Below, in pieces: positions 2,309 to 9,824 of a DNA stretch of 27,733 bases. The first letter of the stretch is position 1. Every line of letters begins with the position of its first letter. The stretch covers positions 1-27,733 of the forward strand of contig JANWZU010000162.1 in NCBI GenBank assembly GCA_025054795.1, in the 5' to 3' direction. The DNA comes from Candidatus Caldarchaeum sp. GTDB lineage: Archaea > Thermoproteota > Nitrososphaeria_A > Caldarchaeales > Caldarchaeaceae. The notes under the pieces were generated by a model that did no database searches, was not told where the DNA came from, and worked only from the letters and a program-made list of their open reading frames with translations. The position numbers were made by a program, and so were the translations under genes.

Positions 2309-2788
2309 CTAGGATTTGAAATACCTCTCCATGGGCTTCGTCGAGTAGACGATAACAACGCTGTCTCGGAACTTTCTGTTGGGAACCAGTATGAGGCATT
2401 CGTCTCCCGAAACAATCGTCCTAGTGAGAGTGATGTCGACTATCTTACCCCTCTTACCGTCAACTTCTACTTCGCTGCCGATGTTCACTCTAGGGTCCAA
2501 GACTATCGAAATGCCTGAGAAAAGATCGGTAAGCCATGGCACGAGAGAAAGTGCTATGAGTAGGCCGAGGGCCCCGGCTGTGGCTAGGAAGCCTACGACG
2601 AACTCGAAAAACCTCCACACGTAGGCGACGTATCCTACGTAAACCGCTAACAGAAGAAGCAGAGCTAAGTACAGAACCTTGCCGTGCTCCTCTCGAAAGC
2701 TACGTTTGAGGAAAAACCTCAAAACAAAAGCAACGGCGAGAAAGAAGGCGGAAGCGACAGCCGTAGCCAACAACTGCTCAACAATCAT
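2309..2788 (-). CDS. mscS: Small-conductance mechanosensitive channel (MscS family), short form
   Basis: Three hydrophobic segments, then DLFSGISIVLD..IGSEVEVDGKRGKIVDITLTRT..ILVPN, typical of the MscS TM3 and beta domain. Confidence 0.8.
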   Translation of the reverse strand: MIVEQLLATAVASAFFLAVAFVLRFFLKRSFREEHGKVLYLALLLLLAVYVGYVAYVWRFFEFVVGFLATAGALGLLIALSLVPWLTDLFSGISIVLDPRVNIGSEVEVDGKRGKIVDITLTRTIVSGDECLILVPNRKFRDSVVIVYSTKPMERYFKS

Positions 2789-2823
2789 GAACTAAGCAAG
2801 CATGCTCCGCTCTATTACCTTTA

Positions 2824-2880
2824 TGCTCAGAGCTCAAGATCTCAGTCACCCGGTCAGACTGGTCAGACTCATCATCGCAA
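2824..2880 (-). ncRNA. Box C/D methylation-guide sRNA
   Basis: Minus strand reads TGC-G-ATGATGA (box C, 2875-2869), 11-nt guide GTCTGACCAGT, CTGA (D', 2857-2854), GGTGACTGA (C'-like), 11-nt guide GATCTTGAGCT, CTGA (D, 2830-2827), GCA. The TGC/GCA stem gives kink-turn geometry. Confidence 0.8.
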
Positions 2881-2901
2881 GTCATTTAGCTTGATACGAT
2901 T

Positions 2902-2909
2902 TTTTATAG
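2902..2909 (-). promoter_or_regulatory. TATA box for the C/D sRNA
   Basis: CTATAAAA on the minus strand about 22-29 nt upstream of the predicted sRNA 5' end (about 2880). Confidence 0.55.
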
Positions 2910-3153
2910 TTTGATGGGTGGTTTATTGCTTTGTCTTTATCGGACGTTTTCTATAAGTTTCTGCTCATCGTGCTTTAGGTTTCTTGCTCGGCTGATTCTC
3001 ATCGACAGACGCTTTCAAAAAAGCAATTCCCAACAACCGCTAGTGTTTAGACAAAGCATATGGATACGCCGCATGACGTCGGACTGTTTTAGTTGTGTGG
3101 TTATTGCCTTGATGCAGCCGTATAGTCGCCGTGAACAACGTGTTTTTGATAAG

Positions 3154-3161
3154 TTTTTATT
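3154..3161 (+). promoter_or_regulatory. TATA box for metalloprotease A (probably leaderless)
   Basis: TTTTTATT 23-30 nt upstream of ATG 3184. Confidence 0.5.
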
Positions 3162-3183
3162 TTGGGGGCGTCAACACGGGCTA

Positions 3184-5322
3184 ATGAGAAGTCTAGTCTG
3201 CTTAATGGTTGTGTTTTTCCTCGCATCCACGATTCCTCAGTCCGCCGTGGGTCAGGAAGATTACAGAGTATTACCCATCAAGTCGCAGCTGGATGTTTCG
3301 CTGGTGTTCATCGACGTGGACCCGACGTTGTTCGGGGCGAGGACCGTGGACGAGATACTAAGGCTGGTTTCGAACAACGTTAGGAAAACAGCCAAGGCTG
3401 TGCTTCACAGGAGTGAGCCTTACGAGTATGCGCCTTTTGAGTTTGAGGTGCGGTTGTCGGGGAGGGAGTTTAGGCTAGTTCCGTTAGAGGAGTTTAGGCT
3501 TTTGCTGAGAAGCCTCAACAATCCTACACCCAGAGAATTACTGGAGAAAGAAGGGGTGAGCGGAAGCTTATCTTCCATACACGCGCCCTCAGCTTTAAAG
3601 ATGCTTGTTGACCTAACCCGAAAACACGCCCCAGATATACTCAAAAACCATGTGATATTCTTCATCTGCGGCGCTAGGGCTCTAGGCTCGACACCCATAT
3701 ACCACACGTTCGGACAAATACCTGAGACACGCAAATACGGCGGCGAACTTCTGATAAACATGTACGGAGGACCTTGGTGGGGAAGGTACGTTTTCGTAGA
3801 CCTCTGCGCCCCAACAGGCTACCGAGAATACAGGCCCATACAAAACCTTAACACAGCGAGCGAGCGGTTGGCTATGCTCGTAAACTATGTCGACGAATTA
3901 ATAGACCTGCAGTTCGTCAAATCAACCCTCTACTATCCAAGGTACAGGCTTCAGCTCTTCGTGGACATAGTCGTCGTCGACGCAACCAAGTTGGGGCTGA
4001 ACTTCAACCAGCTCGTCCAGAGCTTCGACATCGAAACTGTAGAGCAAGCTCTCATAACTCTAACGCCCTACAACCTCTACACATTCAAGGTAAGGCTTTT
4101 CAAAGCGAACGAAATCCCCGGCTTCACAGGAATAATAAGAATAGACCAGGGAAAGAACTTGGCCCTCTTTGAAGCCTACAAGGCCTACGACCTGTTGAAG
4201 AGGTCTGGGAAACTGTTCGAGGAAAGCGCAGACTATGTCTATGTGCCGGCCATAGTGGTAGTCACTGATTATAACACAAGGGTTTATCTTGAAAGCGACC
4301 CTGACGGTGATGGATTCCTGGGAATCGCTCTGCCTAATCCCGAGAACCCTAGGTTGGGGGAGGTAGCCGTTGCAGGAGCTTCATACTACTCTCTGTTTTA
4401 TGAGGGGTTGGCTGCGACGGTAGTGCATGAAATCGCCCATGTTCTAGGCTTGTCTCACCCCCACGACGACTTTGACGAAGAAGCTGGGGACGAAGTATAC
4501 GGGCGTATGATTTACACAGACGGTATCGAAACTTTCATGAGTTATTCAACAACCTGGGTTGAAGCGATTAAACGCAGAACGATCCGGGAGAACTTCTACC
4601 CCATGAAGACATACTGGAGCGTCTTCGACTTGGACGCCATAGACCGGGCAGTCATCTCATTACTGTTATCCGCCTACGAGGAAAACTACCAACAAATAAT
4701 AAATAGGCTCGGTCAAGTGGGGCTGAGGCTGGCTGATTTACAAAACTTGAACAACGCCCTTACCCTCGCAAAACAATACGCAAAGACCTCTGTCCAACTC
4801 TTCAAAAACCATACCTACCTCAACCGGCTTGACTATAAGGGCCTAGGTGCTCAGCTGGAATCCTCCTTTGATTACGCTTTCATGGCTATGGCTTTGACAG
4901 AGCTGGCGAAAACCTATGTCGAGGGGTTGATTGCGCAGAACGAGAGGCTTCGTCCACAGCTAGAAGCCCTACGCATAGACATAGAGCGTTTGACGCAAAC
5001 TCTGAACAGCATTAGGCAGGAAACTGAGAGAACAGCCGCTGACCTCAGAAACGTTGAGGAGGCAGTCAAGAGGGCGTCTGACACTAACGAAGCTTTGAAG
5101 AAGAGGCTGAGGGAGCTGTCTGAGGATGCGGCCCAGCTTGAGCAGCTTCAGTCGAAGAAAGAGGAGCTTGAAAGGAGACTGTCTGAGGGTAGAAGAAGCC
5201 TTGATGCCCTGGAGGGAGAGGCCGGTGTGCTGAGGAATGCGGGAACGTTGCTTATGGTTGTGATTTTTGCAATAGCAGCTGTGGCCGCTGTTATCGTGAA
5301 CCGCTTTAGGAGAGGTATGTAG
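3184..5322 (+). CDS. Secreted, membrane-anchored metzincin-type zinc metalloprotease with coiled-coil stalk (paralog A)
   Basis: Signal peptide MRSLVCLMVVFFLAS; HEIAHVLGLSH (HExxHxxGxxH, 4426-4458); Met-turn TFMSY; about 100-aa heptad-rich region; C-terminal TM followed by RFRR. Start moved from 2911 to ATG 3184 on signal peptide and TATA evidence. Confidence 0.8.
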   Translation: MRSLVCLMVVFFLASTIPQSAVGQEDYRVLPIKSQLDVSLVFIDVDPTLFGARTVDEILRLVSNNVRKTAKAVLHRSEPYEYAPFEFEVRLSGREFRLVPLEEFRLLLRSLNNPTPRELLEKEGVSGSLSSIHAPSALKMLVDLTRKHAPDILKNHVIFFICGARALGSTPIYHTFGQIPETRKYGGELLINMYGGPWWGRYVFVDLCAPTGYREYRPIQNLNTASERLAMLVNYVDELIDLQFVKSTLYYPRYRLQLFVDIVVVDATKLGLNFNQLVQSFDIETVEQALITLTPYNLYTFKVRLFKANEIPGFTGIIRIDQGKNLALFEAYKAYDLLKRSGKLFEESADYVYVPAIVVVTDYNTRVYLESDPDGDGFLGIALPNPENPRLGEVAVAGASYYSLFYEGLAATVVHEIAHVLGLSHPHDDFDEEAGDEVYGRMIYTDGIETFMSYSTTWVEAIKRRTIRENFYPMKTYWSVFDLDAIDRAVISLLLSAYEENYQQIINRLGQVGLRLADLQNLNNALTLAKQYAKTSVQLFKNHTYLNRLDYKGLGAQLESSFDYAFMAMALTELAKTYVEGLIAQNERLRPQLEALRIDIERLTQTLNSIRQETERTAADLRNVEEAVKRASDTNEALKKRLRELSEDAAQLEQLQSKKEELERRLSEGRRSLDALEGEAGVLRNAGTLLMVVIFAIAAVAAVIVNRFRRGM

Positions 5323-8672: not shown

Positions 8673-9824
8673 ATGCCGGTCTTCAAGAGCGAGGAAAAAC
8701 TCTCCCCCGAGTACGTGCCTGAGAAGCTGCTTTACCGGGAGAACGAGCTCAAGCTTCTCAAGTCGTTTTTCTCCTCCCTTTTGAATGAGGCTAATCCTTT
8801 CCAAGTTAGGGTGTTTATAACGGGCGCAGTGGGAACCGGTAAGACGAGTCTGGCGAAGCTTTTTGGAACCGGCTTCGAGCGTGAATCTAGATCTTTGGGC
8901 AGAAAGGTCAGGTTCGCCTACGTCAACTGCAGGATCAACAAATCGCTCTACACGGTTTTGAGAAGGACGGTTGAGCAGCTGGGCTTAGACCTTCCGAGAA
9001 GAGGATACTCCGACGAAGAGGTTTTCGAGGTTCTCGCCAAGTTTCTCCGCTCAAGCGGCCTTCGTCTAATCCTCTGCCTCGACGAGGTTGAGGCCCTGAT
9101 CTCTGAAGAGGGAGGCGAGGCGGTTTATTTCCTGACTAGGATGGGGGAGGGCGTTGAGGAGGCGGGGTTGGTTTCGTTGATGTTGATTTTCCGTGAGCCT
9201 GACTTCCTCGAAAGGCTCGACACCCCTACCCTCAGCGGCATGGGTGGGAACAACATACACCTGAGCGAGTACGACTACACGCAGCTTCTTGAGATTCTGC
9301 GGTACAGGGCTGAGGAGGCTTTCAACAGAAACGCCTTGGGCGATGAGGTGCTGGAATTCATAGCGCAGGCAGCCGCCGAGAGGAAAGACGCAAGATACGC
9401 CATAGACATCCTCTGGCGTTCAGGAAAGTATGCAGAGGCCGACGGAAGCTCAACAGTCGAAGCTGAGCATGTTAGGAAAGCTCTGGCCAGCGTATACCCG
9501 ACTATAAGGAGAGAGAACCTTGCTTATCTTTCGAAAGACGAGAGAATTGTTCTGCTCGCATCGGCTCGAGGCTTAGCGGGCAACAGGACGGCCATCACAG
9601 CATCCGACCTTTTCCAGTACTACAAAGTTGTCTGCGAAGAGCTTAAGACGGAGGCCAAGGGCTACACAACTTTCTGGGAGACTCTTCAACAGCTTCAAGA
9701 CCTAGGTTTTCTCAGGCTCAGCATACGGAGCGAAGGAGCTAGGGGGAGGAAAACATACATCTATCTTCCGGGAATACCTGTCCAGCTTCTCGAGAAAGAG
9801 CTGATGAAAGACGTCAACTTCTAG
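8673..9824 (+). CDS. cdc6: Orc1/Cdc6 replication initiator
   Basis: LSPEYVPEKLLYRE start, Walker A GAVGTGKT, VNCR, Walker B LDEVE, DARYAIDIL, C-terminal winged helix ending GRKT. Confidence 0.93.
   Translation: MPVFKSEEKLSPEYVPEKLLYRENELKLLKSFFSSLLNEANPFQVRVFITGAVGTGKTSLAKLFGTGFERESRSLGRKVRFAYVNCRINKSLYTVLRRTVEQLGLDLPRRGYSDEEVFEVLAKFLRSSGLRLILCLDEVEALISEEGGEAVYFLTRMGEGVEEAGLVSLMLIFREPDFLERLDTPTLSGMGGNNIHLSEYDYTQLLEILRYRAEEAFNRNALGDEVLEFIAQAAAERKDARYAIDILWRSGKYAEADGSSTVEAEHVRKALASVYPTIRRENLAYLSKDERIVLLASARGLAGNRTAITASDLFQYYKVVCEELKTEAKGYTTFWETLQQLQDLGFLRLSIRSEGARGRKTYIYLPGIPVQLLEKELMKDVNF

Follow-up and report, generated by a model that had tools for sequence, protein, structure and literature searches.

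Guidance of tRNA 2′-O-methylation at position 34 by box C/D RNAs has been described or predicted in several archaeal and eukaryotic systems. In Pyrococcus, box C/D small RNAs (sRNAs) are predicted for position 34 of both tRNA-Leu(CAA) and tRNA-Leu(UAA), as well as of tRNA-Met and tRNA-Trp (PMC7994747, PMC7668247), and in Pyrobaculum sR26 is assigned to C34 of tRNA-Trp (PMC6009581); the survey of the latter genus scanned mature tRNAs, and the second guide of its tRNA-targeting sRNAs is usually orphan (PMC6009581). The 2′-O-methylcytidine at position 34 (Cm34) of haloarchaeal elongator tRNA-Met has been attributed to the C/D guide sR-tMet (PMC4033218), and in Euryarchaeota the intron of pre-tRNA-Trp holds a box C/D RNA and is itself the guide, with U39 as its second site (Clouet d'Orval 2001; Singh 2004; summarized in PMC11408192 and PMC4090602). 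In humans, SNORD97 and SCARNA97 are box C/D guides for Cm34 of tRNA-Met(CAT), in the form of two cooperating ribonucleoproteins (RNPs) (PMC6601510). A review of 2014 knew of no essential modification confined to introns (PMC4090602), and a review of archaeal C/D sRNAs published in 2021 makes no mention of Thaumarchaeota, Aigarchaeota or Nitrosopumilus (PMC7994747). Described here is a previously unannotated box C/D sRNA of 57 nucleotides (nt), encoded on the minus strand at positions 2824–2880 of a 27,733-nt stretch of DNA from Candidatus Caldarchaeum sp. (contig JANWZU010000162.1 of assembly GCA_025054795.1; the whole stretch is called the window). Comparative data make it likely that this sRNA guides the formation of Cm34 on unspliced pre-tRNA, its second guide, upstream of box D′, perhaps serving as a clamp on the intron.

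The elements of the sRNA and its promoter region, in the numbering of the window, are the following, where N+5 designates the fifth guide position counted from box D or D′.

2900–2908, minus strand: TATA-like box TATAAAAAA, recognized by its sequence, 33 nt upstream of the C box.
2824–2880, minus strand: box C/D sRNA of about 57 nt, covered over its full length by sub-threshold Rfam C/D matches; the block conserved in relatives ends here.
2877–2879, minus strand: 5′ half of the terminal stem, UGC, pairing with GCA at 2824–2826.
2869–2875, minus strand: C box AUGAUGA, without variation among the 22 aligned homologues; a G at 2876 precedes it.
2858–2868, minus strand: D′ guide (11-nt spacer) GUCUGACCAGU, with C at 2862 as the N+5 base.
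2854–2857, minus strand: D′ box CUGA, invariant in the alignment.
2850–2853, minus strand: D′–C′ loop CCGG, 4 nt, variable in sequence and length (3–12 nt) among homologues.
2843–2849, minus strand: C′ box GUGACUG (RUGA core and three variable bases), of which [GA]UGA is kept and the next three bases are free.
2831–2842, minus strand: D spacer of 12 nt, A followed by GAUCUUGAGCU, with the pairing core GAUCUUGAG at 2833–2841 and G at 2835 as the N+5 base.
2827–2830, minus strand: D box CUGA, invariant in the alignment.
2824–2826, minus strand: 3′ half of the terminal stem, GCA, pairing with UGC at 2877–2879.

An earlier note on the window, made from the letters alone, had proposed a C, guide, D′, C′, guide, D layout, and every element of it was found on the minus strand, as were the features typical of archaeal C/D sRNAs (D′ and C′ boxes joined by a 4-nt loop, spacers of 11 and 12 nt, a total of 57 nt). 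Its estimate of about 55 nt with two 11-nt guides is accurate for the D′ spacer; the D spacer measures 12 nt and the whole RNA 57 nt. The latter spacer depends on the reading of box C′, which the note gave as UGACUGA. GUGACUG fits better because RUGA is the conserved part of C′, present in 21 other homologues, and the D spacer then has 12 nt, the first of them variable. In its 3′ half, C′ is degenerate, as is common for archaeal C/D sRNAs. The C box with its leading G reads GAUGAUGA (2876–2869) and stands next to the stem halves UGC and GCA, so that the G-A-U after the 5′ half would form the 3-nt bulge of a kink-turn. The three stem pairs foreseen in the note are all present here, but only the inner two (GC/GC) are invariant in the alignment, the third being specific to the window genome. 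The sRNA is absent from the open reading frames (ORFs), as the note had said: it is intergenic, between a 159-amino-acid MscS-like ORF (2309–2788, minus strand) and an 803-amino-acid coiled-coil ORF (2911–5322, plus strand).

That the element is a functional box C/D sRNA is almost certain from its conservation and from its rarity in random sequence. The window is contig C186 of a metagenome-assembled genome (MAG) of the Caldarchaeales (‘Aigarchaeota’), 1.35 Mb in size and 79% complete (genome G000 below). With a strict regular expression for the whole layout, two matches are obtained in this genome and none in any of 10 shuffled genomes, the only other strict match being at G000:C53:9438 on the plus strand. 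At the Rfam gathering thresholds there is no match anywhere in the window. Under permissive settings, the same interval and strand is covered from end to end by matches to about a dozen C/D families, archaeal and eukaryotic, all of them below threshold, with the best scores for snoPyro_CD (RF00095, 26.7 bits) and sR1 (RF01152, 24.8 bits), each having a gathering threshold of 45. By its architecture the sRNA is a C/D RNA and it lies outside every curated Rfam family; it is treated as a new family since no Rfam family reaches threshold and since Thaumarchaeota and Aigarchaeota are missing from the 2021 review.

When 151 nt around the element were compared by BLAST, only the core of 55–57 nt aligned (83–93% identity) and the flanks did not; every one of the family's 17 genomes has the sRNA, as do other families of the order. 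A covariance model (R1), built from an alignment of 22 distinct sequences, scores the window sRNA at 81 bits and finds the sRNA in 68 of the 76 genomes of the order, or in 41 of the 43 high-quality ones (the genome set at class level consists of the same 76). The boxes, whose conservation in relatives the earlier note had proposed to check, proved invariant in the 22 homologues, together with positions 2–11 of the D′ guide and the D guide. The variable parts are the D′–C′ loop, the 3′ half of C′, the base beside each D-type box and the outer stem pair; in more distant members the D′ box itself is degenerate (UCGA, AUGA, CGGA). A pattern search of public contigs retrieved only Caldarchaeales-type MAGs (Candidatus Caldarchaeum, Terraquivivens, Pelearchaeum and ‘Nitrososphaerota archaeon’). 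Outside the order, R1 has matches in 17 of 132 sampled genomes of the phylum. Eleven were read, from five other families (the matches of a sixth family are apart from this count), and in all 11 the D guide consists of an exact GAUCUUGAGU and one variable base, with a different D′ guide. Altogether, the D-guide core GAUCUUGAG is exact in 74 of the 74 family members read (22 + 31 + 20 + the window), including the 11 from other families.

The TATA-like box also keeps its place. A strict TATA pattern starts at −35 to −31 from the C box in 18 of 26 homologues (mode −33/−32), and the remaining eight show by eye an A/T-rich element of ATAAA type at the same place. An A-rich stretch precedes the TATA-like element, and the surrounding sequence is otherwise unconserved. 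Because the element is positionally kept amid unrelated flanks, the promoter of its own that the earlier note had assigned to the sRNA is upheld, and the sRNA is presumably transcribed independently. The protein machinery is encoded in the same genome: the genes of fibrillarin (PF01269, 307 bits) and Nop5 (PF01798, 221 bits) are neighbours on contig C198, and there are genes of the L7Ae family, with PF01248 scoring 99.9 bits on contig C56.

Targets were sought among all tRNA genes of G000 and of G009, a complete congeneric genome used alongside it. Genes were listed with the Rfam tRNA model, which gave 30 in G000 against 26 by ARAGORN; the latter missed or mislabelled intron-containing tRNAs, pre-tRNA-Ser(CGA) of G000 being called ‘Leu(cag)’. 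Many tRNA genes of both genomes (e.g. G009:664069-664183, minus strand) have introns, some at non-canonical sites, namely in the D-loop (Leu(CAA), Lys and Phe) and in the T-arm (two Arg genes).

The top matches of the D guide among all these genes are the anticodon loops of tRNA-Ser(CGA) and tRNA-Leu(CAA), each with C34 at N+5. In the window genome, the D-guide core is complementary over 9 bp to CUCGAG/AUC of pre-tRNA-Ser(CGA) (G000:C16:3608-3717; the slash marks the exon–intron boundary). The nine contiguous pairs with GCCUCGAG/AUC include one G·U at position 35, and the G at N+5 of the guide pairs with C34. The sequence GGCUCAAGA of tRNA-Leu(CAA) also forms nine pairs, and pre-tRNA-Trp(CCA) of G009 matches the guide at 10 of 11 positions, with a C·U mismatch at position 35. 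The footprint of the D guide is C32-U33-C34-R35-A36-G37 followed by AUC. Its duplex with the pre-tRNA has a calculated energy of −14.0 kcal/mol, against −10.3 kcal/mol for the best duplex with the spliced tRNA, at an unrelated site. From these complementarities, the D guide quite probably specifies C34 of tRNA-Ser(CGA) and tRNA-Leu(CAA). In G000, pre-tRNA-Ser(CGA) is likely the best substrate and tRNA-Leu(CAA), unassembled in this genome, the second; pre-tRNA-Trp(CCA) is a possible third.

The three bases AUC at the end of the footprint connect this guide with introns. In tRNA-Ser(CGA) of Caldarchaeales they are the first three bases of the intron at 37/38, as in tRNA-Leu(CAA) of several genera, and the predicted substrate is therefore the unspliced pre-tRNA. 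Across the order, 35 of the 36 tRNA-Ser(CGA) genes listed read CUCGAG then AUC, and the lone exception has GUC, still able to pair through a G·U. Since the exon after the intron starts with AGC, two of the D-guide pairs in tRNA-Ser(CGA) are supplied by the intron; in the window genome, three of the nine D-guide pairs and all D′ pairs lie in it. The gene for tRNA-Leu(CAA) is without an intron at 37/38 in family f1, genus g7 and family f3, where it reads CUCAAGACC, and has an intron starting with AUC in most genomes of genera g5, g12, g13, g14 and g15; genes with the 37/38 intron read CUCAAG/AUC, with few exceptions. Beyond the order, CUC[A/G]AGAUC occurs in tRNA-Leu(CAA) or tRNA-Ser(CGA) of 10 out of 10 other-family genomes that keep the exact D guide. 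In full genes from these families, AUC is exonic (A38-U39-C40) when there is no intron and forms the intron start when there is one; in the Leu(CAA) genes of family f5, AUC also begins exon 2. The complementarity of nine bases is thus kept whether the last three belong to exon or intron, which fits selection for guide pairing. Opposite position 35 the guide invariably has U, able to pair with A35 of tRNA-Leu and G35 of tRNA-Ser.

The best matches of the D′ guide among the same genes are inside introns, those of pre-tRNA-Ser(CGA) and pre-tRNA-Trp(CCA). A conserved motif, CUGGUCAGA, in the intron's 3′ half is complementary to the D′ guide GUCUGACCAG, and the first bases of that same intron pair with the D guide. 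In pre-tRNA-Ser(CGA) of the window genome the D′ guide forms 10 pairs (eight Watson–Crick and two G·U) with GCUGGUCAGG, the duplex having a calculated energy of −17.1 kcal/mol, against −7.0 kcal/mol for the best duplex with the spliced tRNA, at an unrelated site. The pattern CUCGAGAUC, a gap of 3–30 bases and CUGGUC has 53 matches in 48 of the 76 genomes, and a reversed control has seven. With the D′ guide of each genome, the best ungapped pairing downstream of AUC is 6–10 bp in 26 of 26 genomes (shuffle p 0–0.06), and the match is inside the intron in 25 of them (7–10 bp); the single genome of family f3 has 6 bp, in the 3′ exon. Perfect D′ 10-mers occur in genomes G043 and G054, and the central part of the intron varies freely. 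In family f3 (G019, L294), the D′ guide is CUCUAGCCAGA and the 37/38 intron of tRNA-Ser(CGA) has no CUGG motif; the best D′ complement of G019 is UCUGGCU in the 3′ exon, at the junction of anticodon stem and variable arm, with seven pairs if guide position 1 is included and six otherwise.

A correlated change separates family f2, where all 16 sRNAs read carry GUCUGGCCAG, i.e. an A-to-G change at position 6 of the D′ guide. The tRNA-Trp introns of this family have CUGGC in 13 of 15 genomes, and lineages with the guide A have U there in 31 of 31. Two f2 tRNA-Ser introns also carry the C (G043 and G049); in pre-tRNA-Ser of G043, the U-to-C change would break a predicted intramolecular A–U pair, yet gives a G–C pair with the guide. 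Because the switch defines one clade, it amounts to about one event, seen in two intron families. These comparisons tip the balance slightly towards functional pairing of the D′ guide with the intron.

Folding of the anticodon arm with its intron predicts a helix between G37/AUC(N) and the (N)GGUC of the intron motif. In this predicted fold the two guides are complementary to both strands of one helix beside the 5′ splice site. The following sequence of events can be envisaged. The sRNA would assemble with L7Ae, Nop5 and fibrillarin into a 2′-O-methyltransferase RNP, the D′ guide would grip the intron strand and so free the anticodon–intron junction for the D guide, and fibrillarin at box D would methylate the wobble C34 to Cm34. 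Departure of the small ribonucleoprotein (sRNP) would then let the splicing motif re-form and the intron be removed. With the guides bound to the intron in this way, methylation would have to precede splicing.

Several observations weigh against this interpretation. On the side of the D guide, the pairing with tRNA-Ser(CGA) has its G·U directly beside the target base, and tRNA-Trp has a C·U mismatch there; moreover, most of the target (CUCRAGA) is fixed by tRNA identity, the independent information residing mainly in the two bases UC. On the side of the D′ guide, it is a single clade that the A-to-G / U-to-C change sets apart, which makes it close to a single evolutionary event, the N+5 base is an intron G whose methylation has no obvious use, and half of family f1 has only 7 contiguous bp of D′ pairing. 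The CUGGUC motif is also predicted to pair within the pre-tRNA, and part of its conservation could reflect a splicing motif. Outside the order, no D′ target was found in the Leu and Ser pre-tRNAs of families f5, f6, f19, f27 and f29. Finally, chance often produces co-located matches of both guides of at least 8 bp (25 in G009, 21 in G000). Co-location in a single genome being uninformative, the case rests on the comparative data.

Other targets for the two guides have to be considered. The earlier note was right in its N+5 arithmetic, which pointed to the C in AGCU[C]AAGAUC and to the second G in CUG[G]UCAGAC, and its preference for tRNA over rRNA as target class agrees with the best matches in pre-tRNAs and the weak rRNA scans of relatives; it went further and suggested that the targets of the two guides might lie in the D-stem and D-loop of a single tRNA. 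Class II tRNA-Leu D-loops do contain CCUGGUCAA, which gives 7 contiguous bp with the D′ guide, and in pre-tRNA-Leu(CAA) of G009 the D-loop and the start of its D-loop intron form 9 of 10 pairs with it. However, no D-stem among the tRNA genes of G000 and G009 matches the D guide, whose best matches are anticodon loops, the best D′ matches are in introns, and the Leu D-loops offer only the generic 7-mer CUGGUCA. The N+5 base there would be G19, whereas the known D-loop methylation site is Gm18. Moreover, in other lineages the D-arms of tRNA-Leu(CAA) and tRNA-Ser(CGA) that were read mismatch the differing D′ guide of their own genome, and within Caldarchaeales the intron motif tracks the A-to-G change of the guide, all of which makes a shared D-arm target highly improbable. 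A guide directed at rRNA, with a target missed in a MAG without rRNA genes, is very unlikely for other reasons. Most archaeal C/D sRNAs do target rRNA, dual guides usually matching nearby rRNA sites (PMC6009581), and neither the small-subunit (SSU) nor the large-subunit (LSU) rRNA gene is assembled in G000, probably because such genes are intron-rich; yet the SSU and LSU loci, introns included, of three to four congeners and the SSU loci of other families yielded nothing above 8–9 bp, G·U pairs counted. The one LSU site conserved between genomes, UGCUUAAGGUA, was rejected for a G·U pair at N+5, and exact 10-mer complements of the guides in five relatives are as frequent as in the reversed control. 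The rRNA loci of relatives are indeed rich in introns, with SSU loci of up to 3.2 kb and LSU loci of 4.9–5.5 kb (e.g. G003:C7:41700-44906 and G009:C1:1311688-1317180). A candidate on contig C9 of G000, with both guide complements 17 nt apart, turned out to be the antisense strand of another C/D sRNA, and is no target. It is scarcely credible that the D guide directs Cm56 in T-loops reading GGUUCAAGUCC. This pairing has eight contiguous pairs (six Watson–Crick and two G·U) with C56 at N+5, in several tRNAs, and in work by Renalier and co-workers of 2005 a C/D sRNP reportedly makes Cm56 in Pyrobaculum, but the pairing would use the variable guide positions 1–2 and leave the invariant positions 9–11 unpaired. 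G000, G008 and G009 all encode the protein enzyme aTrm56, which renders a guide for C56 unnecessary.

Two further explanations question the function rather than the site. The sRNP could be mainly an RNA chaperone or splicing timer that binds both helix strands at the 5′ splice site and delays or orders intron removal, with methylation secondary or absent. The guides are indeed complementary to the strands G/AUC and GGUC, predicted to pair with each other in the pre-tRNA, and the N+5 site of D′ is intronic. Against such a role speak the exact N+5 geometry on C34, the retention of the D guide where the target tRNAs have no intron, and the fact that C/D-guided Cm34 is a known function (PMC7994747), so that an sRNP acting mainly in this way is judged unlikely. 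One might also suspect a motif arisen by chance, or a relic without function near the promoter of the MscS-like gene downstream, since the sRNA lies 35 nt ahead of that gene's ATG (2788) and is read from the same strand; the probability of this is negligible, given that the sRNA is conserved across the order while the immediate flanks differ between most genomes, that the strict motif is absent from shuffled genomes and that the promoter is conserved as the sRNA's own. The A/T-rich element UAAAGGUAAUAGA (2810–2822, minus strand), which immediately follows the sRNA and precedes the ATG at 2788 by about 27 nt, has similar counterparts in several congeners and is probably a separate promoter of a leaderless MscS-like mRNA.

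Two other sRNAs were noticed beside the family described here. In genus g7, a paralogous C/D sRNA (G029 L215:2999-3055, G035:C10:16072-16128, G026:C29:53924-53980) lies about 1.5 kb from the family member, or 8 kb in G026. In the G029 copy, the only one read, the D guide is GGUCUUAAGUU, the presumed complement of the anticodon loop of tRNA-Leu(UAA), with U34 at N+5; the tRNA gene was not located in the g7 genomes. The C/D sRNA on contig C9 mentioned above lies at about 9670–9728 of that contig on the plus strand (L037, about 1470–1528) and at 531055–531115 in G009; it is kept throughout the order and has no Rfam annotation. The 16S rRNA sites matched by its two guides in G009 are GGUGGACGUUGC and ACUGCCCGUCGC in the region of the decoding centre. 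In both G000 and G009, it shares sense-strand 9- and 10-mers with the window sRNA: AUCUUGAGC is the D guide in the window sRNA and spans the D′ box region in the second sRNA, and AGUCUGACCA is the D′ guide in the former and spans the D box region in the latter. By a rough estimate these shared words are too long for chance, and they may point to an origin through rearrangement of an older sRNA gene.

Returning to Cm34 formation on unspliced pre-tRNA, a broader proposal can be made, tentatively and with less than even confidence. The short introns of tRNA-Ser(CGA), tRNA-Trp(CCA) and some tRNA-Leu(CAA) may be under selection as binding sites of the sRNP, the intron-borne AUC replacing an ancestral A38-U39-C40 and the D′ guide co-evolving with the second motif and opening the junction helix for methylation of C34 before splicing. 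If true, this would provide a guide-RNA-based reason for the retention of tRNA introns; wobble-base methylation would be tied to unspliced tRNAs, a concrete case for why archaea keep short tRNA introns. The family also ranks among the more deeply conserved tRNA-targeting guides, being near-universal in one order and extending, through its D guide, to five other families. In practical terms, the covariance model is ready for annotation, C/D guides being largely unannotated outside a few model archaea.

In comparison with known systems, what appears unusual is the combination of a predicted D-guide site partly supplied by the intron, a second guide matching the same intron and a D guide conserved well beyond the order. 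The Pyrococcus and Pyrobaculum guides are of the same kind and address the same position 34, and tRNA-Leu(CAA) is a predicted target shared with Pyrococcus, which also has a predicted guide of the Leu(UAA) type, as does genus g7 through its paralogue. The likeness is one of kind, the Rfam models of the Pyrococcus families scoring below threshold on the window sRNA. Unlike the Pyrobaculum guides, the window sRNA would pair in part with intron bases, and its second guide matches the same intron, which suggests searching the ‘orphan’ second guides of tRNA-targeting sRNAs against introns. Haloarchaeal sR-tMet resembles it in being a box C/D RNA that acts in trans to guide Cm34 in a tRNA and differs in its target (elongator tRNA-Met), host, length (about 75 nt) and unusual box features, a comparison made by description and not by sequence. 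In Haloferax volcanii, it is said to act on the intron-containing precursor, in work by Joardar and co-workers of 2011; a second guide pairing within the intron is not known for it. The human SNORD97 and SCARNA97 share the role of Cm34 guide, in a eukaryotic setting without intron involvement. The pre-tRNA-Trp system of Euryarchaeota is similar in its intron-dependent Cm34 made before splicing and its interplay between guide pairing and the splicing motif; there, however, the intron is the guide, whereas the window sRNA is encoded by a separate gene and a short intron of about 22–35 nt would be its target.

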